From assembly GCA_963759005.1 (NCBI GenBank), contig CAVWXQ010000023.1, forward strand, positions 63 through 64,062: a DNA stretch of 64,000 bases, written 5' to 3'. Below the pieces are notes generated by a model. That model was given only the letters and a program-made list of their open reading frames with translations. It was not told where the DNA came from and made no database searches. Of the stretch, positions 16,679 to 64,000 are shown piece by piece. Position 1 is the first letter of the stretch; each line of letters begins with the position of its first letter. Origin of the DNA: an uncultured Gammaproteobacteria bacterium (GTDB lineage: Bacteria; Pseudomonadota; Gammaproteobacteria; SZUA-229). The translations under genes were made by a program, and so were the position numbers.

Positions 16679-16783
16679 TTCACCACAGAGGCACAGAGCA
16701 CACAGAGAAAAACTATTTATTACTTAGTGCGCCGCAGGCGCACAAAAATAAAACCTCTGTGTCCTCTGTGCCTCTGTGGTGAA
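16679..16783. repeat. CACCACAGAG inverted-repeat element (family A)
   Basis: ttcaccacagaggcacagagcacacagag ... ctctgtgtcctctgtgcctctgtggtgaa, with inner hairpin gtgcgccgcaggcgcac. Confidence 0.9.
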
Positions 16784-22560: not shown

Positions 22561-22758
22561 ATCCACAGATGAACGCAGATGAACACAGATAAAAGCCTTA
22601 TCAGAAGTTTGTCATCTTGAGTGATAGCGAAAGATCTTGAGTTTGGTGTATAAATGCTATGCTGATAAAGATCCTTCACTATTGTTCAGGATGACAGAAA
22701 GTTATTAAAAAGTTATTATCTGTGTTCATCTATGTCGCATCTGTGTTCATCTGTGGAC
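22561..22758. repeat. CACAGATG-type inverted-repeat element (sister of family A) enclosing a GTCATC..GATGAC REP-like element
   Basis: atccacagatgaacgcagatgaacacagat ... atctgtgttcatctgtggac. Inner tgtcatcttgagtgatagcgaaagatct...agatccttcactattgttcaggatgaca at ~22610-22696. Confidence 0.85.
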
Positions 22759-28634: not shown

Positions 28635-28770
28635 TTCACCACAGAGCGCACAGAGCGACGAACAAAGAAAAACATTAATATATTTTAGCATTGTGAGCTA
28701 TGCCTGCCTAGGCTCAAGCTTTAACACATAAAAATTCTTTCTTTGCGTTCTCTGCGTCCTTTGTGGCTAA
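28635..28770. repeat. Degenerate family A inverted-repeat element
   Basis: ttcaccacagagcgcacagag ... ctctgcgtcctttgtggctaa. Confidence 0.75.
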
Positions 28771-47575: not shown

Positions 47576-47630
47576 TTCCACAGAGGTCACTCTTTCACAC
47601 ATAAATGCGTATGAGCGACCTCTGTGGTAA
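47576..47630. repeat. Collapsed family A element with insert-derived centre
   Basis: ttccacagag-gtcactc...gagcgac-ctctgtggtaa. Confidence 0.75.
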
Positions 47631-47966
47631 AAATGCTTTTTAGTTTTTGACCTTTATCTGGCAATAAGTAATGGTCATATAAAGTCTGAGACATTGTATG
47701 CAAGCTACTGAAATACATAATTTATCTTATTTTATTTACTTAAAATGTAACTAACCATTCATCGGTTTGTACGGACATTTTGTCGAATTATTAATAGATT
47801 TTTCTAGAATTGGTATATCATTCGTTAACTTTAAGCAAAACGTGCTTATCGTACTCAAATGTCAGTCATGGTTCTCGTGGCTGAGCAAGAAACTCCAAAT
47901 CAAATTCAAAAAACATTATTACATCTAAGCGATGTATCAATTTATTTACATACGGGATGTATATAG

Positions 47967-54831: not shown

Positions 54832-56256
54832 ATGATAACACCGGTAATTTTATCGGGTGGCTCAGGAACACGCTTGTGGCCACTTTCCAGAAAAGCGCAT
54901 CCAAAACAACTTCTGCCATTATTAAATCAGACATCATTATTGCAGGACACAATAAATCGTCTGGATGGCCTTAAAGATATCGCCAATACCGTTGTTATTT
55001 GCAATGAAGAGTACCGTTTCATGGTTGCAGAGCAGACTCATGCAACCCGCATTGGCGCGGATGCGATAATTCTGGAACCGGTCGGTCGTAATACAGCGCC
55101 TGCTATCGCTTTGGCTGCGTTCAATGCGATGCTAACTGATGAAGATGCAGTATTACTGGTATTGCCAGCGGATCATGACATAAAAAATGTGAGTGAATTT
55201 CATAAAGCAATAGAAACTGGTTTACATCAGGCGTTAAACAATCACTTTGTTACATTTGGTATTGTTCCAGACAGTCCTGAAACAGGATACGGTTATATTA
55301 AGTCGGTAGACACAGTAGCAGTCAATGAAGTTGCTGCAATTGAAAAATTCGTTGAGAAGCCAGATCTGGATACCGCCACAAAATATCTTAACGAAGGCGG
55401 TTACTACTGGAATAGCGGTATGTTTATGTTTAAAGCATCTGAATATTTAAACGCGCTACAGGAATTTTCACCTGAAATATACAACGCCAGTCAAAATGCA
55501 ATTAATAATGCAGTGAGAGATATGGATTTTATTCGTATCGGTGCTGAGGAATTTAAAAAGTGTCCGAGCGACTCAATTGATTATGCGGTCATGGAAAAGG
55601 TCAAAAACGCTGTCGTCATACCAGTTGATATTGGTTGGAGCGATGTTGGCTCATGGTCAGCTTTACACGAAATTGGTGAATTAGATGAAAATAATAATGT
55701 TTTTATCGGTGACACCAAATGTGTATCAACAACAAATTGTTATGTGCGAGCAGAAAATAAACTGGTGACAACCCTGGGTATTGACGATTTGATCATTGTT
55801 GATACCGATGATGCCTTACTGGTTGCCAGTAAAAGTCATGTGCAGGACATAAAAATCATTGTTGAATCGTTGACCAGTGAAAAAAGAGAAGAAGTTGTAG
55901 TACATAAACGAGTATGTCGCCCCTGGGGTTGTTACCAGGGCATAGACAGCTCAGATCGATTCCAGGTAAAAAGAATAACAGTAAATCCGGGGGCAACACT
56001 GTCTTTACAATTGCATCATCATCGTGCTGAACACTGGGTTATTGTTAACGGCACAGCAAAAGTAACAAAAGGCGAAGAAGTGTTTATACTAACTGAAAAC
56101 GAATCAACCTATATTCCATTAGGCACAAAACATCGGCTTGAAAATATAGGGAAAATCCCCCTGGAATTAATAGAAGTGCAAACCGGTAGTTATCTTGGCG
56201 AAGACGATATTGTACGTTTTGATGATATATACGGAAGAGAAGGTAAAACAACATGA
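54832..56256 (+). CDS. manC: Mannose-1-phosphate guanylyltransferase/mannose-6-phosphate isomerase
   Basis: GGSGTRLWPLSR, EPVGRNTAPA, WSDVGSW, RPWG, HHHRAEHW. Confidence 0.95.
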   Translation: MITPVILSGGSGTRLWPLSRKAHPKQLLPLLNQTSLLQDTINRLDGLKDIANTVVICNEEYRFMVAEQTHATRIGADAIILEPVGRNTAPAIALAAFNAMLTDEDAVLLVLPADHDIKNVSEFHKAIETGLHQALNNHFVTFGIVPDSPETGYGYIKSVDTVAVNEVAAIEKFVEKPDLDTATKYLNEGGYYWNSGMFMFKASEYLNALQEFSPEIYNASQNAINNAVRDMDFIRIGAEEFKKCPSDSIDYAVMEKVKNAVVIPVDIGWSDVGSWSALHEIGELDENNNVFIGDTKCVSTTNCYVRAENKLVTTLGIDDLIIVDTDDALLVASKSHVQDIKIIVESLTSEKREEVVVHKRVCRPWGCYQGIDSSDRFQVKRITVNPGATLSLQLHHHRAEHWVIVNGTAKVTKGEEVFILTENESTYIPLGTKHRLENIGKIPLELIEVQTGSYLGEDDIVRFDDIYGREGKTT

Positions 56257-56267
56257 AAGGACCAGGT

Positions 56268-57185
56268 ATGAAAGCATTAGTAACAGGTGGTGCTGGTTTT
56301 ATCGGTTCGCATATTGTTGATCGTTTATTGAAAGATGGCCATGAAGTGGTTGTTCTGGATGATTTTTCAACAGGCCACCGCAGCAACTTACCCGATAATA
56401 AAAAACTGACAATTATAGAAGGTGATATAAGCAACCAGGATACGGTTAAAGAATGCATGCAAGGTATTGACTGGGTATTTCATAAAGCGGCCGTCGCATC
56501 AGTGCCAAAGACTGTGAATGATCCCGTTGGCAGTAGCGCAGTAAACTATCAGGGCACATTGCACTTATTAGAAGCCGCAACAGACAACAACGTAAAACGT
56601 TTTGTATTCGCATCAAGCGCGGCATTGTATGGTGATGAACCAACACTACCAAAAATAGAAACCATGTGCCCGGTCACTTTATCGCCTTATGCAGTTGATA
56701 AATTAGCCTCAGAATTTGCCTGTGGCATGTACACAAAATTATATGGATTAGAAACCGTTTGTTTAAGGTATTTTAATGTTTATGGACCAAAACAGGATCC
56801 TTCCTCACCTTATTCCGGTGTTATTTCCATTTTTACAGATAAACTTAAAAATAAACAAACCCCCACCATATTTGGCGATGGTCAGCAAACAAGAGATTTC
56901 GTATTTGTAAGTGACGTTGTTGAAGCCAATATGAAAGCGGTAACAACGCAACAGGGCACCGGGCAATATTATAATATTGCAACAGGCAAAAAAATCACCT
57001 TAAACCAGTTATTAGAAACATTGTGTGAGATCTATAATGTAGATTTTAATGTGAATTATGGTGATATCAGAAAAGGTGACATTAAAGAGTCTTACGCCGT
57101 TATAGAAAAAGCAAATTCAATATTGAAGTGGACTCCATCGGTTGAATTAAGCCAGGGATTAAAAATCCTTTGCGAAAGCTTATAG
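56268..57185 (+). CDS. NAD-dependent epimerase (WbpP/GalE-like extended SDR)
   Basis: TGGAGFIGS, SPYAVDK, RYFNVYGP.QDP.SPYSGVI. Confidence 0.9.
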   Translation: MKALVTGGAGFIGSHIVDRLLKDGHEVVVLDDFSTGHRSNLPDNKKLTIIEGDISNQDTVKECMQGIDWVFHKAAVASVPKTVNDPVGSSAVNYQGTLHLLEAATDNNVKRFVFASSAALYGDEPTLPKIETMCPVTLSPYAVDKLASEFACGMYTKLYGLETVCLRYFNVYGPKQDPSSPYSGVISIFTDKLKNKQTPTIFGDGQQTRDFVFVSDVVEANMKAVTTQQGTGQYYNIATGKKITLNQLLETLCEIYNVDFNVNYGDIRKGDIKESYAVIEKANSILKWTPSVELSQGLKILCESL

Positions 57186-57217
57186 GGTTTTAACTAATAG
57201 AAAAACACAAACATTTA

Positions 57218-57522
57218 TTCACCACAGAGGTCGCTCTTGTGTATCCGTACACCTGCGACATTAGTGCATCCGTGCACGTCGCACAGAGGGCACAGAGTAA
57301 ACCTTTTAATTTTAAACAACCACCAGCATTAAGACTTGCTGCTTTTATTTTAAAAAATAACATATAAATCAAAGCGTTGTATTAATTACTTAATATATTA
57401 CTTTAGAAATATATCTTCGCTTTTAAAACTAAAAAAACTTTTCTCTGTGCTCTTCGTGCGACGTGCATGGATGCGCTAATGTCGCGCTCATATGGATGTG
57501 AAAGAGTGACCTCTGTGGTGAA
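57218..57522. repeat. Family A inverted-repeat element with a 51-bp insert in each arm
   Basis: ttcaccacagag|57230-57280|gcacagagggcacagag ... ctctgtgctcttcgtgc|57460-57510|ctctgtggtgaa. Confidence 0.9.
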
Positions 57523-57584
57523 TAAATATTTGTAGTTTTTAGATTTAAAAATAAAAAGAAAAATAACGTATTGGAACAATAATT

Positions 57585-58889
57585 ATGAAACAACAATTAA
57601 TAAATAAATTAGCAGACAAATCAGCAATTATCGGTATCGTGGGCCTGGGTTATGTCGGTATTCCTCTGGCATTACGTTATGCCGAAGCTGGTTATAAAGT
57701 TGTCGGTTTTGACATTGATCCTGAAAAAGTTGAAAAAATATCTTCAGGTAAAACTTATATTAAGCACATTCCCGACGAAGACATTCAATCTGCTGTAGAC
57801 AGGGGGTTCGAAGCCACCATTGATTTCACCCGTGCGACGGCTGCCGATGCATTAATCCTGTGTGTACCAACGCCACTCGATTTGCACCGCGAGCCAGATC
57901 TTAGCTACGTATTAGATACAATGGACAGTCTTCTTCCTTATTTGCGAGCCGGCCATGTGGTTTCACTAGAAAGTACAACCTACCCGGGCACAACGGATGA
58001 AGAATTAAAACCACGCATTGAAAGCACTGGTTTGAGCGTTGGAGACGATGTATTCCTGGTTTATTCACCAGAACGAGAAGATCCCGGCAATAAAAATTTC
58101 AATACACAAACCATTCCCAAAGTTTGTGGCGGCGATACCGAAGCCTGTCAGCAAGTTGGTGTTGCATTATATAGTCATGTTATCGATAAAGTTGTTTCAG
58201 TCAGTTCTACACGAGCCGCAGAAATGACTAAATTGCTGGAGAACATTCATCGCGCCGTTAACATTGGCCTGGTTAACGAATTAAAAATTGTTGCAGACAA
58301 AATGGACATTGATATTTACGAAGTGATCGATGCTGCCGCCACTAAACCATTTGGTTTTGTACCTTATTATCCCGGTCCGGGTCTGGGTGGACATTGTATC
58401 CCAATCGATCCATTTTATTTAACCTGGAAAGCACGTGAATATGGCATTAATACCCGATTCATTGAACTGGCTGGTGAAGTAAACAGCTCCATGCCCGAGT
58501 ATGTTTTAAACAAAATTGTTTCAGGTTTGAATGACCAGAAAAAAGCCATCAATGGTAGCCGCATTCTTATGTTGGGCATTGCATATAAAAAGAACATAGA
58601 TGATATGCGCGAATCACCTTCAGTAGAAATCATGCAGCTTATTCAAAACTGTGGCGCAGAAATAAACTATTCAGATCCTTACGTGCCAGTATTCCCGAAA
58701 ATGCGCCGTTATAGTTTTAATATGAACAGTGTGGAAGCAAGCAGTGAAAACATTAAAACCTATGATTGCATTGTAGTAGGTACCGATCATGTAGATTTTG
58801 ATTATGAAATGATTCGTGAAAATGCAAAATTAATTGTTGATACCCGTGGTATGTACCGTGGCAAATATAAAAATGTAGTACATGCATAA
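57585..58889 (+). CDS. wbpA: UDP-N-acetylglucosamine 6-dehydrogenase (WbpA-like)
   Basis: [36 protein letters not shown]. Confidence 0.85.
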
Positions 58890-58911
58890 AGTATATAATC
58901 ACAAACTTATT

Positions 58912-59185
58912 TTCACCACAGAGGCACAGAGCGCACAGAGAAAAACATTTTATCGTTTAGTTTAAAAATAAAAATAGTTCTCCTCTGTGCCCTTTGTGTC
59001 TCTGTGGTGAACAATAGTTTTTAGTTTGTGATTTGTAGTTTTAACAATAAAAGTTTACCTTTGTGTGCTCTGTGCAACGTGCATGGATGCACTAATGTCG
59101 CAGGTGATCTGAGCCTCTGTGGTGATAAAGTTTTTAGTTTTTAAATATAAAAAAGGTTCCTCGTGTTCTGTGCCTCTGTGGTGAA
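58912..59185. repeat. Family A element plus two extra right arms
   Basis: IR 58912-59011; further ctctgtggtga arms ending near 59125 and 59185. Confidence 0.9.
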
Positions 59186-59225
59186 CAATAGTGTGTAAAG
59201 TTTTTAGAATATATTAGGAGTAAGT

Positions 59226-60530
59226 ATGAATGTTGTAATGATTGGTTCAGGTTATGTAGGCCTTGTATCAGGCGCGTGTTTTGCCGAGTTCGGCGCAAAT
59301 GTAACGTGTATTGATAAGGATGAAAGCAAAATAAACGCGCTGCTAAATGGCAAAATACCTATATATGAACCGGGGCTGGATACCTTCGTTGCTAAAAATA
59401 TAGAAGCAGGCCGTCTGGGATTTTCGACAGAACTAAAAGAAAAGGTTGCAGAGGCCGAGTTAGTGTTTATCGCAGTAGGCACCCCGACAAGACACGGTGA
59501 TGGCCATGCTGATCTGCAATATGTCTATGCTGCTGCAGAAGAACTTGCAGGCTATTTAAAAGGTTATACAGTGATTGTTGATAAATCGACTGTCCCCGTT
59601 GGCACAGCTCGACAGGTACATCGAATTATCAGCACTGCAAATCCGGATGCAGATTTTGATGTGGCTTCTAATCCTGAGTTTCTAAGAGAAGGTTCAGCAC
59701 TTGATGATTTTATGCGTCCTGACAGGGTGGTTTTAGGTGTTGAGTCTGAACGTGCCGAAGCCTTATTGCGCGAACTGTACAGACCGCTTAACTTAATCGA
59801 AGCACCCATTCACGTAACCAATCTTGAAAGTGCAGAACTGATTAAATATGCAGCCAATGCCTTTCTCGCTACAAAAATCAGCTTTATCAATGAAATGTCT
59901 CAATTGTGTGAGAAAGTAGGTGCCGATGTACACTCTATCGCAAAAGGCATGGGGCTGGACGGACGTATCGGTAAAAAATTCTTACATGCAGGCCCTGGTT
60001 ATGGCGGTTCATGTTTCCCCAAAGACACACTTGCGCTCATACGCATAGCACAGGAACATGGCTCATCATGTCGTATTGTAGAATCAGTGGTCGAAGTAAA
60101 TGCCGCTCAGAAAGCCAGGATGGTTTCAAAAATAAGAGACGCATTAGGAGGCTCAGAAGCAGGTAAAACCATCGCAGTCCTGGGCCTTACCTTTAAGCCA
60201 GAAACAGATGACATGCGTGATTCGCCATCACTAGCCATACTGCCAGCACTGTCTGACAAAGGCGCAACAATACGCGCCCATGACCCGGAAGGCATGGAAG
60301 AAGCGAAAAAATTATTACCCGATAATATACAGTACTTTGATTCAATATATGAAATGTTTGAAAATGTAGATGCAGTTGTATTGATGACAGAATGGAACCA
60401 GTACCGTGCACTTGATCTTGAAAAAGTCAAAAGCTTGATGAAAGGCAATGTGTTTGTGGATCTACGCAACGTATACGAGAAAGACACCATGGAGCAGAAA
60501 GGTTTTAACTACCATTGTGTAGGGCGTTAA
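59226..60530 (+). CDS. ugd: UDP-glucose 6-dehydrogenase
   Basis: GSGYVG, AVGTP, SNPEFLREG, GYGGSCFPKD, FKPETDDMRDS. Confidence 0.93.
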   Translation: MNVVMIGSGYVGLVSGACFAEFGANVTCIDKDESKINALLNGKIPIYEPGLDTFVAKNIEAGRLGFSTELKEKVAEAELVFIAVGTPTRHGDGHADLQYVYAAAEELAGYLKGYTVIVDKSTVPVGTARQVHRIISTANPDADFDVASNPEFLREGSALDDFMRPDRVVLGVESERAEALLRELYRPLNLIEAPIHVTNLESAELIKYAANAFLATKISFINEMSQLCEKVGADVHSIAKGMGLDGRIGKKFLHAGPGYGGSCFPKDTLALIRIAQEHGSSCRIVESVVEVNAAQKARMVSKIRDALGGSEAGKTIAVLGLTFKPETDDMRDSPSLAILPALSDKGATIRAHDPEGMEEAKKLLPDNIQYFDSIYEMFENVDAVVLMTEWNQYRALDLEKVKSLMKGNVFVDLRNVYEKDTMEQKGFNYHCVGR

Positions 60531-60535
60531 ATATA

Positions 60536-60856
60536 TTCACCACAGAGGCACAGAGGTCACAGAGGAAAACGATTGTTGTTTTAAATAAGCACCAACTACA
60601 ACTGCCTGATGCACAAGTAGCAAGATCGTTTCTACTAGCATGTGTCAAGATGAACAGCAGTGTAGTGTTGACAACATTAATAGTTTCGTTCACATGTACT
60701 AGCTTGTGAACAGGAAACAGGGTAGATAGTTTATAGCTTTTAAGCAATTAAAAGGTTTTCCTCTGTGCACTCTGTGTCTCTGTGGTGAACAATAGTTTTT
60801 AGTTTATGATTTGTAGTTTTAACAATAAAAGTTTACCTCTGTGACACTGTGGTGAA
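60536..60856. repeat. Family A element enclosing a long imperfect hairpin, plus an extra right arm
   Basis: IR arms 60536-60570 and 60754-60789; degenerate arm 60837-60856. Confidence 0.9.
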
Positions 60857-60884
60857 TCAAATTGTTTAGAAAAAGGAGATGTAA

Positions 60885-61262
60885 ATGATAAAAGGAAATC
60901 AACTAACAAGCGAGATCATAGGTTCTGCAATTGAAGTGCATCGTAATCTTGGCCCCGGGTTACTGGAGTCAACCTATGAAGAATGTATGGCATTTGAATT
61001 ACAGGAAAGAAAATTAATAGTACAACGACAACATGAGATACCTGTTTTATACAAAGGAAATAAACTAGACCAAAATTACCGTATTGATCTTTTAGTGAAC
61101 AATCAAGTGATCATTGAACTAAAATCAATTAAAAAGATAGAACCAATCCATGATGCCCAGCTACTAACATACTTGAAACTGGCAAACATAAGATATGGAT
61201 TATTATTAAATTTTAACGTACCAGTAATGAAACAAGGCATTAAAAGATTATTAAACGGATAA
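60885..61262 (+). CDS. GxxExxY protein (PD-(D/E)XK nuclease superfamily)
   Basis: IGSAIEVHRNLGPGLLESTYE (GLLESTY), RIDLLV..IIELKS, AQLLTYLK, GLLLNF; RBS aaggag. Confidence 0.93.
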   Translation: MIKGNQLTSEIIGSAIEVHRNLGPGLLESTYEECMAFELQERKLIVQRQHEIPVLYKGNKLDQNYRIDLLVNNQVIIELKSIKKIEPIHDAQLLTYLKLANIRYGLLLNFNVPVMKQGIKRLLNG

Positions 61263-61336
61263 GCATATTAACCACAGGTTTATGCACATAAGACAAACAA
61301 GTGTTATATGTTATTTGTTTTTAACAATAAATAGCT

Positions 61337-61579
61337 TTTCTCTGTGTCCTCTGTGGTGAATAAGTTTTCTAAGCCTCTGTGTAATATGTTTTTAGTTTTA
61401 ATATAAAAGGTTTTCCTCTGTGCACTCTGTGCCTCTGTGGTGAATAAGTTTGTTAATATTTAAATATAAAAGGTTTTCCTCTGTGCACTCTGTGCCTCTG
61501 TGGTGAATAAAGTGTTTTATATGTTTTTAAATATTAAAAAGGTTTTCCTCTGTGCACTCTGTGCCTCTGTGGTGAATAA
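61337..61579 (+). repeat. Tandem array of family A right arms
   Basis: Three identical 43-bp units aaaaggttttcctctgtgcactctgtgcctctgtggtgaataa at 61405, 61468 and 61537, plus a shorter one at ~61337. Confidence 0.95.
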
Positions 61580-61600
61580 ATGTTTATGGTGAATAATTAA

Positions 61601-62611
61601 ATGAAAATATTAGTAACAGGTGTAGCCGGTTTCATCGGCATGAGTGTAGCCAAAGCGCTACTGGAAAGAGGCGACGAAGTCGTTGGCATAGATAATCTAA
61701 ATGATTATTACGACGTACAACTAAAACACGACCGTTTAAAATTAATCGAAGATTATGAGATGTTCACCTTCATAAAAATGGATATTTCAGATCGTGAAGC
61801 CATGAAAACACTGTTTGAAAAACAAAACTTCCAGCGCGTATTTAATTCAGCGGCACAAGCAGGTGTGCGTTATTCATTAGAAAACCCGCATGCTTATGTA
61901 GACAGCAACCTGGTCGGTTTCGTTAATATATTAGAAGGCTGTCGGCAGACAAAAGTCGAACACCTGGTCTATGCCAGCAGTTCGAGTGTCTACGGCGCAA
62001 ATACAAACATGCCATTTAGCGTGCACGACAATGTTGATCACCAGGTAAGCCTGTATGCCGCAACAAAAAAATCCAACGAGTTAATGGCGCATACCTACAG
62101 TCATTTATACAACATACCCACAACCGGTCTGCGCTTCTTTACAGTATATGGACCGTGGGGCAGACCGGATATGTCACCCTCATTGTTTACAGGCGCAATA
62201 TTGCGTGATGAGCCAATCAATGTCTTCAACGAAGGAAAAATGAAGCGTGACTTCACCTATATTGACGATATTGTAGAAGGTGTTGTACGCGTAATCGACA
62301 AAACAGCAGAGCCAAACCCGGATTATGATAATAACAACGCTGACCCGGCAACCTCCTATGCACCCTACAGAGTGTATAACATCGGCAATAATGACGTAGT
62401 ACAGCTTATGGATTTCATAGAAACCATAGAAAATGCAGTCGGCAAAAAAGCCGAAAAGAACATGATGGGAATGCAGGACGGAGACGTAGTTGCAACCTAT
62501 GCAAACATAGATGCATTAATCGATGCGGTTGGTTTTAAACCAGCCACACCATTAAAAGATGGTATCAAGAAATTTGTAGATTGGTACAAGGAGTACCATG
62601 GCTATAATTAA
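61601..62611 (+). CDS. UDP-glucuronate 4-epimerase family protein
   Basis: TGVAGFIG, AAQAGVRYS, SLYAATKK, RFFTVYGPWGRPDM. Confidence 0.9.
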   Translation: MKILVTGVAGFIGMSVAKALLERGDEVVGIDNLNDYYDVQLKHDRLKLIEDYEMFTFIKMDISDREAMKTLFEKQNFQRVFNSAAQAGVRYSLENPHAYVDSNLVGFVNILEGCRQTKVEHLVYASSSSVYGANTNMPFSVHDNVDHQVSLYAATKKSNELMAHTYSHLYNIPTTGLRFFTVYGPWGRPDMSPSLFTGAILRDEPINVFNEGKMKRDFTYIDDIVEGVVRVIDKTAEPNPDYDNNNADPATSYAPYRVYNIGNNDVVQLMDFIETIENAVGKKAEKNMMGMQDGDVVATYANIDALIDAVGFKPATPLKDGIKKFVDWYKEYHGYN

Positions 62612-62618
62612 TAGAATG

Positions 62619-62852
62619 TTCACTACAGGGATGCAGAGAGTACAGAGAAAATTTTTATTTTGTCATGCTGGCGTAGGCCAGTATCCATTTATCAGGTGAA
62701 TATGGATTATCAGGATTAATGCCAGGATAAGCGATGGATACCGGCTAGAAGCATACCTGCATGACGGTAATCCATTTGTTTGTCATTTTAATTCATGTCT
62801 TTCGCGTATTCTATGACCCCATAAAAGCTTTTCTCTACGTCTCTGTGGTGAA
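62619..62852. repeat. Degenerate family A element enclosing a GTCATG..CATGAC REP-like element
   Basis: ttcactacagggatgcagagag ... ctctacgtctctgtggtgaa. Inner tgtcatgctggcgtaggccagtatcca...tggataccggc...gcatgacgg. Confidence 0.8.
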
Positions 62853-62945
62853 TCGCCTCTAAAGTCTTGACTTTGACTCCCTTTAATCCAATAGACAGTT
62901 TATAATAAAAAAATAATTTTTCAGATATAAATACGGATGTAAACA

Positions 62946-64000
62946 ATGGCAAAAGTAGCATTAATAACAGGCATCACCGGGCAGGATGGTGCCTACCTGG
63001 CGGAATTTCTTCTAGACAAAGGGTATGTTGTACACGGCATTAAACGCCGGGCATCATCGTTTAATACCGACCGCGTAGATCACCTGTACCAGGATCCGCA
63101 TGAAAAAGAACAGAAGTTTATTCTTCATTACGGAGATTTAACCGATTCCATGAACCTGGTGCGTATTATCCAGCAAATACAGCCAGATGAAGTATACAAC
63201 CTGGCAGCGCAAAGCCATGTAGCGGTTTCTTTCGAGTGCCCTGAATATACTGCAGATACGGTTGGTATGGGTGCACTTAGAATACTGGATGCCATTCGAA
63301 TTTCAGGCCTGGAAAAGAAAACCCGTTATTACCAGGCATCAACTTCAGAATTGTACGGTGAAGTACAGGAGATCCCGCAAACAGAAAAAACACCGTTTTA
63401 TCCACGTTCACCCTATGCAGTAGCAAAACTGTACGCCTACTGGATTACAGTTAATTACAGAGAAGCTTATGGTATATATGCCTGTAATGGAATTCTGTTC
63501 AACCATGAATCACCCATACGTGGAGAAACATTCGTTACTCGAAAAATTACCCGCGCATTTGCAAGAATTAAACTGGATCTACAGGATAAGTTATTTCTGG
63601 GTAATTTAAGTGCTAAACGTGACTGGGGACATGCAAAAGATTATGTTGAAATGCAGTGGTTAATGTTGCAGCAGGATAATCCGGAAGATTTTGTCATCGC
63701 CACCGGCGTTCAATACTCAGTAAGAGACTTTGTAAATAAAGCAGCCAAAGCCGTGGATATAGAAATGGAATGGAAAGGCGAGGGGATAGATGAAAAAGGC
63801 TATGATAAAGCGACAGGAAAATGTCTGGTAGAAGTCGATCCAAGATACTTCAGACCAACAGAAGTAGAAACCCTGCTAGGTGATCCGACTAAAGCAAAAG
63901 AAAAACTGGGCTGGGTACCTAAAATTACATTGGATGAGATGGTCACCGAAATGGTAGAAAATGACCTGATGATTGCCAAACGTGATGCCCTGTGTGAAAA
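62946..64000 (+). CDS. gmd: GDP-mannose 4,6-dehydratase (runs off the window end)
   Basis: [53 protein letters not shown]. Confidence 0.95.

Follow-up and report, generated by a model that had tools for sequence, protein, structure and literature searches.

The intergenic gaps of a sugar-nucleotide operon in the 64-kb stretch of DNA analysed here (the window) are filled with inverted repeats, and a small GxxExxY gene lies among them. This raises the question of whether the repeats mark exchangeable sugar genes, serve the host, or belong to an element of which the GxxExxY gene is itself a part. We suggest that the repeats are probably the arms of palindromic insertion cassettes, the full-length form of which carries the GxxExxY gene and would be mobilized by the encoded protein through the cassette's own arms.

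The 12-mer core of the arm, CTCTGTGGTGAA, has 19 matches with at most one mismatch in the window compared to 0.22 expected, a number reached in 0 of 100 shuffles of the window. Fourteen of the 19 matches fall within 57186-62945 and occupy all five gaps between the first epimerase gene and gmd (Table 1), as the initial annotation of the locus had noticed. That annotation was also right about the 8-9-nt CACAGAG periodicity of the left arm, the degenerate left arm following the GxxExxY gene (61268, three mismatches), the dispersed copies at 16679, 28635 and 47576, and the local peak in arm density. Gap 2 and gaps 3-4 are the only two sites with at least three arms among 97 genome-wide. Left-arm cores are minus-strand matches at 57218, 58912 and 60536, and right-arm cores are plus-strand matches at 57511, 59000, 59115, 59174, 60778, 60845, 61349, 61433, 61496, 61565 and 62841, with a second degenerate left arm at 62619 (two mismatches). 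The arms bracket the gaps' own interiors rather than the sugar genes, because every gap has its own left and right pair (57201-57307/57433-57539, 58912/59000, 60536/60778 and 62619/62841 in an inverted-repeat search). The 51-nt module nested in gap 1 occupies the same arm position at a different locus of a relative (G012; alignment of filled and empty sites), and a remnant of it is found in the first extra solo right arm of gap 2. Tandem right arms like those of gap 4 occur eight times upstream of the orthologous gene in genome G047.

Table 1. Genes and repeat elements of the sugar-nucleotide operon, and dispersed copies of the repeat, in the window.
Feature	Coordinates	Strand	Evidence
NAD-dependent epimerase gene, bordering the repeat-rich stretch on its upstream side	56253..57185	+	Pfam PF01370, E 2e-64
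Gap 1, one large palindromic element, arms 57201-57307 and 57433-57539	57201..57539		inverted repeat I1, 107 nt, 79% complementary
Gap 1, terminal cores	57218-57229 and 57511-57522		core matches
51-nt module nested in left arm, separating units 1 and 2, with a mirror copy in right arm	57231..57281		sequence
UDP-sugar/GDP-mannose dehydrogenase family gene (initially annotated as wbpA)	57585..58889	+	PF03721, PF00984, PF03720
Gap 2, complete gene-less palindromic element, 100 bp	58912..59011		core matches, inverted repeats
Gap 2, two extra solo right arms, cores 59115-59126 and 59174-59185	59060..59185	+	families D4, D9
UDP-glucose 6-dehydrogenase family gene (ugd)	59226..60530	+	PF03721, E 8e-67
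Gap 3, 254-bp element, left arm 60536, right arm 60778, 184-nt interior	60536..60789		inverted repeat I12, 35 nt, 91%
Solo right-type arm, 28 nt before the start codon of GxxExxY	60826..60856	+	D13
GxxExxY protein gene, 125 aa	60885..61262	+	PF13366, E 5.4e-46; TIGR04256, E 8.7e-47
Gap 4, degenerate left-type arm 61268-61279 and first right arm 61349-61360	61268..61360		sequence; core match; locus L001
Gap 4, array of three 63-69-bp units in tandem with a right arm at the end of each, cores 61433, 61496, 61565	61396..61590	+	family D2
NAD-dependent epimerase gene (initially annotated as glucuronate epimerase)	61601..62611	+	PF01370, E 2.4e-53
Gap 5, decayed 235-bp element, degenerate left arm 62618-62647, right arm 62841-62852	62618..62852		family D5, 65% copy
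Dispersed complete gene-less element, 105 bp, central GC hairpin	16679..16783		core matches, arm pairing
Dispersed solo arm	28635..28646	-	core match
Dispersed short variant element, 56 bp, right-arm core with one mismatch	47576..47631		core match

The GxxExxY protein of the window is predicted to be a minimal PD-(D/E)XK nuclease. It scores 156.2 bits against PF13366 (cut-off 22) and 158.3 bits against TIGR04256 (cut-off 35). The intact D..ExK motif reported initially is present as D68..E78-x-K80, and the residues G25, E28, Y31, D68, E78 and K80 are invariant in an alignment of 75 sequences (A3). An AlphaFold2 model (pLDDT 94.7) matches restriction-endonuclease-like folds including 3ijm (Z 8.3), the nuclease domain of BpuSI (8.2), Cas4 (7.8) and Hjc (6.5). 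The PADLOC models of anti-phage defense families match the protein only weakly, through the nuclease core of Cas4 and PDC-M36A (best E 1.9e-4), and the second GxxExxY copy of the genome has no match. The family is large, with 23,067 cluster representatives at E ≤0.001 and 7,801 at ≤1e-10. A table of the family review lists GxxExxY as "Unknown" in function with "multiple transfers" (PMC3424549), and we found no functional statement in the literature beyond that table entry.

GxxExxY genes are strongly associated with inverted arms. A tight bracket of ~30-nt arms, defined by a best inverted-repeat score of at least 35 between the flanks of the gene, was found at 20 of 24 GxxExxY loci of the genus set and at 46 of 77 scored loci from many phyla, including the archaeon Methanothrix. 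Among controls, 2/400 random ORFs of 100-160 aa from the source genome and 0/118 shifted windows in the same loci were bracketed. L-gene-R variants make up half of the loci (40/80). An arm consists of about three tandem 8-10-nt units behind a conserved TTCACC-type terminal motif, and the only ORF between the arms of the cassettes inspected encodes the 125-aa PF13366 protein. In the full-length cassette of ~415-470 bp, the GxxExxY gene is preceded by a left arm and a short spacer with the ribosome-binding region and is followed by a right arm. A short form of ~65-125 bp has the same arm pair around a small loop. The window's own gene is one of the 4 out of 24 lacking a tight canonical bracket. 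Its layout is R-gene-L, with the nearest arms in the wrong orientation. We found no printed description of such a cassette of gene plus matching arms, which spans many bacterial phyla and one archaeon.

The sequence of the arms follows the lineage of the protein. The arms have a period of 8-9 nt at loci of protein clade A, compared to 10 nt at 8/10 clade B loci, and genomes holding two GxxExxY clades have two arm types. Arm sequence and protein distance are correlated (Mantel r 0.64, reached by 0/999 permutations). Such a correlation is expected for any linked DNA, and the real lineage argument is that arms can still be aligned at 55-65% protein identity. The initial annotation had regarded the repeats as cognate to GxxExxY, and had named an association across genomes and co-variation of repeat sequence with protein phylogeny among the tests of its idea. 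Both are found, and the association is strong against controls and extends across phyla.

Several findings point to mobility of the cassettes. One genome (G019) carries three near-identical cassettes at three unrelated sites, which argues that a DNA-level copying step is needed. Target-site duplications are not consistently seen among these copies, with flanking direct repeats matching at 8/8 positions in one and at 7/8 (A-rich) in another, and absent from the third. The site at 16679 is filled in six genomes of the genus and empty, with gaps of 9-33 bp, in at least three relatives, the sequences of which are too diverged for placing the junctions. An internally deleted cassette was found as well (L048). 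Cassettes are tightly placed between nuoE and nuoF and, in Bacteroides finegoldii, between radA and the gene of a FAD-dependent protein, and the second GxxExxY copy of the source genome lies between carA and carB.

Gene-less copies are abundant. Each of the two GxxExxY genes of the source genome has an arm family of its own, which includes dozens of gene-less palindromes ~100 bp in length. There are 97 exact cores and 51 arm pairs of family 1, and 80 arm matches of family 2, the family cognate to the carA-carB copy. Five genomes from five phyla each contain a generic arm pattern 10-50 times, at spacings of ~70-160 bp and 413-436 bp, compared to 0 for a reversed control. The copy number of arms does not track the gene within the genus. 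Two relatives have 130 and 30 arm matches and no PF13366 match (G003, 84% complete, and G002, respectively), and G019 has five PF13366 matches and 0 family-1 arms. An intact gene with family-1 arms was found in 0/9 relatives having at least 20 family-1 arms, all of which are draft MAGs, in which assembly can easily miss a 450-bp gene flanked by high-copy repeats.

We infer that GxxExxY itself cuts or moves the arms. The protein might bind the tandem units of its own arms and introduce DNA breaks that copy or move the cassette. The short form would arise from the full-length cassette by internal deletion and persist in dozens of copies per genome. By analogy with ORF-bearing intervening sequences (IVSs) of 23S rRNA, RNase III could cut the arm stem in transcripts, and a cassette located between co-transcribed genes would then carry little cost.

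The prominence of RNA stems also suggests a different explanation, which we consider unlikely though the strongest of the alternatives. The arms might form stems in operon transcripts for RNase III processing, mRNA stabilization or masking of the ribosome-binding site of the cargo, with GxxExxY acting as an RNA-binding protein, an RNA endonuclease or an unrelated passenger, and with spread left to host recombination or another factor. In the predicted RNA fold of one locus (L021), the two arms pair over 29 bp and enclose the ORF (z -6.9), which fits the preferred reading as well. The gene-less elements of gap 2 (MFE -52.6 kcal/mol, z -11.8) and at 16679 (-64.1 kcal/mol, z -12.3) have strongly negative z-scores as RNA, and the two arms of gap 3 pair with each other in the fold. 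The repeat sites of the genome are intergenic and mostly follow genes, with 33 of the 97 in convergent, 48 in co-directional and 4 in divergent contexts. Where the context is co-directional, 9 of the 11 gene-less elements that could be oriented point the same way relative to transcription, a trend that stems from a small sample. Processing of IVSs by RNase III provides a precedent, arms are abundant without a cognate gene, and the same architecture holds a non-nuclease cargo, PF05635. As this unrelated four-helix bundle shares the architecture, the nuclease fold is not needed for it. However, pure pairing would allow free compensatory drift, yet the unit sequence remains recognizable from Bacteroides to Methanothrix. 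G:U-type mismatches in arms do not significantly exceed A:C-type mismatches (80 vs 61, p 0.13) and give no clear sign of selection on sense RNA. The invariant catalytic motif belongs to a DNA-nuclease fold, and the three G019 copies speak for DNA copying.

Somewhat less probable still is that the host uses the palindromes as terminators, insulators or supercoiling sites, and that GxxExxY maintains them as proposed for RAYTs and REPINs, forming a domesticated REP-like system rather than a selfish one. This would suit the one or few gene copies per genome next to dozens of palindromes, the separate repeat family of each gene lineage, and the position of palindromes at gene ends with avoidance of divergent promoter gaps. 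Domestication is harder to reconcile with the patchy presence within one genus, where one orthologous site is both filled and empty, and with the commonly broken or truncated genes (L034, L045, L048). The patchy presence and the occurrence of the same arm type in distant phyla and an archaeon, along with the multiple transfers reported for the family, argue for horizontal, selfish spread.

Shuffling of wbpA, ugd and the epimerase genes as cassettes by the nuclease, as the initial annotation had envisaged, is highly improbable and fits the data poorly, since arms do occur on both sides of every gene from the first epimerase to gmd but pair within gaps and not across genes, the gene order is conserved in relatives, where the gaps measure ~15-130 bp and lack arms, and cassettes elsewhere occupy unrelated housekeeping operons. 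The equivalent of gap 2 measures ~15-35 bp in G015 and G022, ~24 bp (match coordinates) in G049 and ~95 bp in G009. Given the compact operon of the relatives, it is the repeats that have been inserted, and the sugar genes do not represent cassettes. With insertion cassettes as the preferred reading, each of the five gaps of a once-compact operon would have been colonized by the element, one insertion carrying in the GxxExxY gene, and the arms around this gene would then have been tandemly amplified.

Tying the gene to a cognate, lineage-matched DNA element provides a concrete and testable candidate substrate for the GxxExxY family, and experiments could start from Bacteroides finegoldii, a carrier that is in culture and has a clean cassette. 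The cassettes would explain one class of the palindromes that abound between genes in Bacteroides, sediment bacteria and other groups, and may account for many over-long or two-domain GxxExxY ORFs in databases. Annotators should be aware that GxxExxY cassettes can occupy housekeeping operons.

Among known systems, free-standing PD-(D/E)XK homing endonuclease genes such as I-Bth0305I, a weak fold match of the GxxExxY model (rank 38), are likewise small selfish nuclease genes between host genes. Homing enzymes have one cognate empty allele and no inverted arms of their own, whereas GxxExxY cassettes occupy many unrelated sites. The Correia/NEMIS elements of Neisseria resemble the gene-less elements in being palindromic, intergenic, ~100-150 bp long, co-transcribed with neighboring genes and cut by RNase III. 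We know of no gene-bearing form of Correia/NEMIS and of no cognate protein. MITEs and their parent insertion sequences share with the cassettes terminal inverted repeats common to coding and non-coding forms, an excess of short over coding forms, an internal-deletion intermediate (here L048) and insertion polymorphism between relatives. Unlike these, the coding cassette encodes no known transposase family but only a 125-aa nuclease domain, and its arms are arrays of tandem units.

The closest analogue is REP/RAYT, where a small nuclease-type gene is also flanked by inverted repeat copies and the repeat is dispersed as intergenic palindromic doublets (Bertels and Rainey 2011, PMC3116915), with one repeat family per gene lineage. 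The initial comparison with REP/RAYT thus holds for the logic of the system but not for RAYT membership. RAYTs are Y1 HUH transposases and GxxExxY is of the PD-(D/E)XK type, and no arms (≤4 mismatches) were found within 3 kb of the 10 PF01797 (Y1 transposase) genes of the source genome. REPs are described in a passage of PMC3733652 as imperfect palindromes of 20-40 nt forming a single short hairpin with a GTAG or CGTC tag, in contrast to the arms, which are arrays of tandem units behind a TTCACC-type terminus.

The closest known relative is the ORF-bearing rRNA IVS, because genes for the "23S rRNA IVS protein" (PF05635) have the same arm layout at 18/21 loci. In the source genome, rfbB and rfbA are separated by a further cassette, of the PF05635 type. 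ORF-bearing 23S rRNA IVSs, as in Coxiella and Leptospira with the S23p ORF, and GxxExxY cassettes are alike in length (~430-470 nt). In both, the terminal inverted repeats pair into a stem of ~28-29 bp, the loop contains a single small ORF, and about three tandem 7-9-nt repeats, variable in number, directly precede the start codon. According to PMC4990558, the Coxiella IVS is a selfish element of unknown mobility, with RNase III cutting its 28-bp terminal stem and three tandem heptamers located ahead of its ORF. The origin and mobility of IVSs were still described as unclear in 2016. The two differ in cargo, an S23p four-helix bundle in the IVS compared to the PD-(D/E)XK nuclease, and in site, since IVSs reside in helix 25 or 45 of 23S rRNA and GxxExxY cassettes in mRNA operon gaps. 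All GxxExxY sites examined lie between protein genes (ugd and epimerase, carA and carB, nuoE and nuoF, radA and FAD-dependent protein). The GxxExxY system also has dozens of gene-less copies per genome, unlike the IVS. We tentatively raise the possibility that GxxExxY cassettes and ORF-bearing IVSs are two cargo classes of one ancient mobile-element family of bacteria and archaea defined by arms of tandem 7-10-nt units, in which the bare 125-aa GxxExxY nuclease would be the mobility enzyme of its own element, reading its cognate units and mobilizing gene-less copies in trans. If true, this would link the GxxExxY family to rRNA intervening sequences, explain the origin of the latter, and constitute a new kind of transposase-like system.

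The sugar-nucleotide operon runs on the plus strand from 54832 and encodes manC, an epimerase, two UDP-sugar dehydrogenases, a 125-aa PF13366 (GxxExxY) protein, a second epimerase and gmd. At no more than one mismatch, the 12-nt core CTCTGTGGTGAA matches the window 19 times against 0.22 expected, a count reached in 0 of 100 shuffles, and 14 of the 19 matches lie inside the five intergenic gaps from the first epimerase to gmd (57186-62945). The arms are built of CACAGAG-type units spaced 8-9 nt apart, which bears out the initial annotation of a repeat family around the sugar genes. The core search also recovered all of the dispersed copies reported at 16679, 28635 and 47576. Within every gap, a left arm comes first and at least one right arm follows. 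The degenerate left arm described after GxxExxY is present in gap 4, and another follows the second epimerase in gap 5.

Arm pairs in the five intergenic gaps of the window, in order from the first epimerase to gmd
Gap	Left arm	Right arm	Character
1	57201-57307	57433-57539	inverted repeat
2	58912	59000	inverted repeat
3	60536	60778	inverted repeat
4	61268	61349	left arm degenerate
5	62618	62841	left arm degenerate

In the RNA fold, the two arms of gap 3 pair with each other and leave the GxxExxY reading frame outside the stem. Since arms pair within gaps, the bracketed units are the gaps and not the sugar genes. Relatives of the same genus carry a compact operon. The wbpA-ugd gap measures 336 bp in the window versus approximately 15-35 bp in genomes G015 and G022, 24 bp by match coordinates in G049 and 95 bp in G009. 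The distance from ugd to the epimerase is 1070 bp versus approximately 95-312 bp in G022, G014, G023 and G009, where the two genes are directly adjacent. Among relatives, only G047 has a GxxExxY gene at the same operon position. Both the repeats and GxxExxY thus entered a once tight operon by insertion, and the proposal that sugar genes are shuffled as arm-bracketed cassettes is supported by neither arm pairing nor operon structure.

The gaps show further rearrangements. Tandem amplification has produced arrays of right arms in units of 63-79 bp: three copies lie downstream of GxxExxY (61396-61590), and the G047 ortholog has eight tandem right arms upstream of the gene (locus L135, 3081-3635). 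The window gene has an inside-out layout of right arm, gene and left arm, which recurs in about 6 of 80 loci of other phyla. A 51-nt module separates arm units 1 and 2 at two unrelated loci of two genomes (window 57231-57281; locus L180 of G012), with further copies at window 59060-59126 and on contigs C6, C33 and C48. The module looks like an even smaller element nested in the arms. The wbpA-ugd gap of G009 (L132) and G049 (L131) contains tandem GTTATAAG and GACTAAAG units, which resemble the arms of cassettes encoding the 23S rRNA intervening-sequence (IVS) protein PF05635 in G009 and G008 (L146, L148). Different arm families thus colonise one gap in different species.

The association of gene and arms extends well beyond the window. 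For each PF13366 gene of the relatives and of G034, a genome of another family, the two 300-nt flanks were searched for inverted repeats between them, and the best local repeat gave the score. Scores of at least 35 were found at 20 of 24 loci compared to 2 of 400 random 100-160-aa ORFs of the window's genome, G000 (median 18, 99th percentile 27). The distance from gene end to arm is 0-60 nt, and an arm of about 30 nt comprises about three tandem units. The G034 cassette of 451 bp starts 3 nt past the nuoE stop and ends 10 nt short of the nuoF start. The second of the two PF13366 genes of G000 lies between carA and carB, and its arm is of a different type with 10-nt units. This second arm family has 80 genome matches at up to seven mismatches, mostly as pairs 50-165 bp apart. 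Given the dispersed copies of both families, each GxxExxY gene of G000 has its own family of gene-less palindromes. The carA gene beside the second cassette (L002, G000:C27:59213-62554) appears as two overlapping minus-strand ORFs (L002 2141-3040 and 1915-2349), which may reflect a frameshift or an assembly error.

A 19-protein profile retrieved 595 relatives among 600 candidate stretches, with one genome per species. The best 80, being those nearest to the window's protein and hence a biased sample of protein clade A, come from SAR324, Hydrogenedentota, Geobacterales, Chloroflexota, Verrucomicrobiota, Bacteroidota, Acidobacteriota, Planctomycetota, cyanobacteria, Betaproteobacteria and Methanothrix. 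Among the 77 of these loci with sufficient flank, 46 score at least 35 and 58 at least 28, as opposed to 0 and 2 of 118 shifted control windows at the same loci. A strict unit detector applied to the 80 loci found left arm, gene and right arm at 40, a single arm at 11 and no arm at 5; at 6, the gene lies between complete or inward-facing arms as in the window. In five of these genomes, each of a different phylum, a generic arm pattern occurs 33, 50, 15, 10 and 12 times versus 0 for the reversed control, each genome favouring its own unit variant at pair spacings of approximately 70-160 bp and 413-436 bp. On an annotated replicon of Bacteroides finegoldii, a clean cassette separates radA from the gene that follows; its arms are nearly identical to those of the window. 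The family comprises 23,067 cluster representatives at E ≤0.001. Eight plasmid or secondary-replicon records match GxxExxY, and tblastn against 50,697 phage records found no match. Many database family proteins (P0001-P0150) are 160-295 aa long, with the match beginning 40-110 residues in or split into two stretches; these may be ORF calls through arms, tandem cassettes fused as one gene or true two-domain fusions. In a Planctomycetaceae genome (G052:C21:26812-28138), arm pairs at 413-bp spacing repeat every 654 bp, which points to a tandem array of two or three GxxExxY cassettes.

Arms also follow the protein lineage. Units are 8-9 nt long in clade A and 10 nt in 8 of 10 clade B loci, and genomes with both clades carry both arm types. 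Protein identity and arm similarity covary (Spearman r 0.64 over 62 loci, a value reached in 0 of 999 permutations), a correlation that is by itself expected of any linked DNA. The stronger point is that arms can still be aligned where the proteins share just 55-65% identity, and also between phyla, unlike what is expected of neutral intergenic DNA. Where orientation could be determined, 59 of 72 upstream neighbours and 52 of 67 downstream neighbours are co-oriented. Such rates are close to ordinary bacterial gene adjacency, and neighbour orientation was therefore not counted as evidence.

Gene-less elements are dispersed over the G000 assembly (3.49 Mb, 57 contigs, 43% G+C). The core of the window's arm family (family 1) occurs 97 times exactly and 155 times with up to one mismatch, with most contigs represented. 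Elements are defined by 51 minus/plus arm pairs, 45 of which span 65-123 bp; these palindromes are nearly perfect, often have a GC hairpin at their centre, and fold as RNA with a z of about -12. The 97 sites lie between convergent (33), co-directional (48) or divergent (4) genes, with the neighbour not determinable at 9 and a contig edge at 3. Six sites are spanned by long open frames and are probably chance one-mismatch matches. Three or more arms occur at just two sites, the gaps around ugd and GxxExxY of the window. Among 11 orientable gene-less elements, 9 share one orientation relative to transcription, a sample too small to conclude from. An Rfam search of 56000-64000 with an E-value threshold found no known RNA family: all 8 matches at E ≤1 were well under gathering scores, and most were to plant or animal microRNA hairpin models that matched the palindromes. 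Five gene-less copies (C1:43456, C22:53783, C48:202423, C15:7489 and C33:25408) have about 40 bp of extra conserved, mutually inverted flank per side, and appear from these flanks to be embedded in a palindromic repeat of larger size, about 220 bp. Element ends were blurred in the search for target-site duplications because some copies sit within larger palindromic repeats. An arm of a third family at 22561-22591 has 10-nt GATGAACGC-type units and matches those that flank GxxExxY genes of clade B in relatives (L024, L030, L044); no GxxExxY gene matching it was found in G000.

Mobility at the DNA level is indicated by both cassettes and gene-less elements. Genome G019 carries three cassettes at three unrelated sites, which are 99-100% identical over about 520 bp. 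Flanking direct repeats differ among the three, with an 8/8 match at one, a 7/8 match at another and none at the third. In a fourth copy, an internal deletion has removed all of the gene but its 3' end and spared both arms, which makes this copy a direct intermediate on the way to gene-less elements. The site orthologous to the element at window 16679 is filled in six genomes of the genus and empty in G011, G041 and G045, with gaps of 9-33 bp. The analysis supports the core proposal of the initial annotation, a GxxExxY gene that forms a mobile or once-mobile system with cognate inverted repeats, and finds this system to be general across phyla; it does not support the shuffling of sugar genes.

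We infer an enzymatic step by GxxExxY. Across 75 sequences, residues D68, E78, K80, G23, G25, E28, Y31, Q92, Y96, G105, N109, F110 and R121 are invariant, and the AlphaFold2 model (pLDDT 94.7) has a minimal restriction-endonuclease-like fold. The best VIA-align matches (Z 8.3-6.5) are an uncharacterised Spirosoma protein, the BpuSI nuclease domain, Cas4 and Hjc. All are generic PD-(D/E)XK matches with Z ≤8.3, a range the tool calls common, and hence no specific nuclease subfamily can be named. Foldseek returned no match at E ≤0.001, a sequence search of solved structures gave nothing useful (one match, E 0.33) and PADLOC found weak matches to the nuclease core only. Given the invariant residues and the fold, GxxExxY is probably an active nuclease, with a substrate indicated by neither.

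Direct action of this nuclease on the arms is opposed by several observations. Arm copy number and gene presence are uncoupled within the genus: G003 has 130 arm matches and no PF13366 match, and G019 has no family-1 arms and five PF13366 matches. An intact gene with family-1 arms was seen in none of nine relatives with at least 20 such arms, all draft MAGs, which may well lose such genes; several copies lie at contig ends. The window gene itself stands without the canonical tight bracket. The same architecture also surrounds other cargo. The sole PF05635 gene of G000, encoding an S23p four-helix bundle (L129, G000:C27:92104-92412), lies between the rfbB stop and the rfbA start, is bracketed by arms of tandem CAGTTGG-type octamers and has a complete gene-less hairpin just upstream. 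In the relatives, a score of at least 35 is reached by 18 of 21 PF05635 loci, with AT-rich units of 7-8 nt. The architecture is therefore common to two unrelated cargo families and does not depend on the nuclease. At the RNA level, the arm mismatch spectrum (G:U versus A:C) was not significant and gave no clear signal either way. No sequencing run contained more than 0.27 of the sampled words. When four runs were compared to the window, summed depth over the arms was very high and joints were numerous; the joints most plausibly stem from further copies of the repeat in other organisms. An RNA-library contig covers 60746-60957 with 2 differences; contigs can show neither transcription nor RNA ends.

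No description of a GxxExxY cassette with flanking repeats was found in the open literature, a search outside which lie subscription journals, supplements and database family notes. Passages on the family in publications on GxxExxY, PDDEXK_3 or PF13366 do not mention flanking repeats, and open literature on the IVS four-helix bundle, selfish small ORFs with repeats, small dispersed repeats and S23p outside rRNA describes no such cassettes. Among known systems, the pattern of MITEs and their parent insertion sequences fits the GxxExxY cassettes, with the difference that no known transposase is encoded. REP/RAYT is the closest analogue in logic, but both its defining enzyme and its repeat type are absent. 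As a candidate partner gene, RAYT was rejected: the ten Y1 transposase genes of G000 (PF01797, L003-L012; IS200/IS605 or RAYT type) have no such arm within 3 kb. In anatomy, the cassettes match the Coxiella 23S rRNA IVS. This IVS is described in PMC4990558 as a 428-nt selfish element with an S23p ORF looped out by a terminal stem of 28 bp that RNase III cuts, three tandem heptamers of strain-variable number ahead of the start codon, and an origin regarded there as unresolved. In the predicted RNA fold, GxxExxY cassette arms likewise form a 29-bp stem around the ORF.
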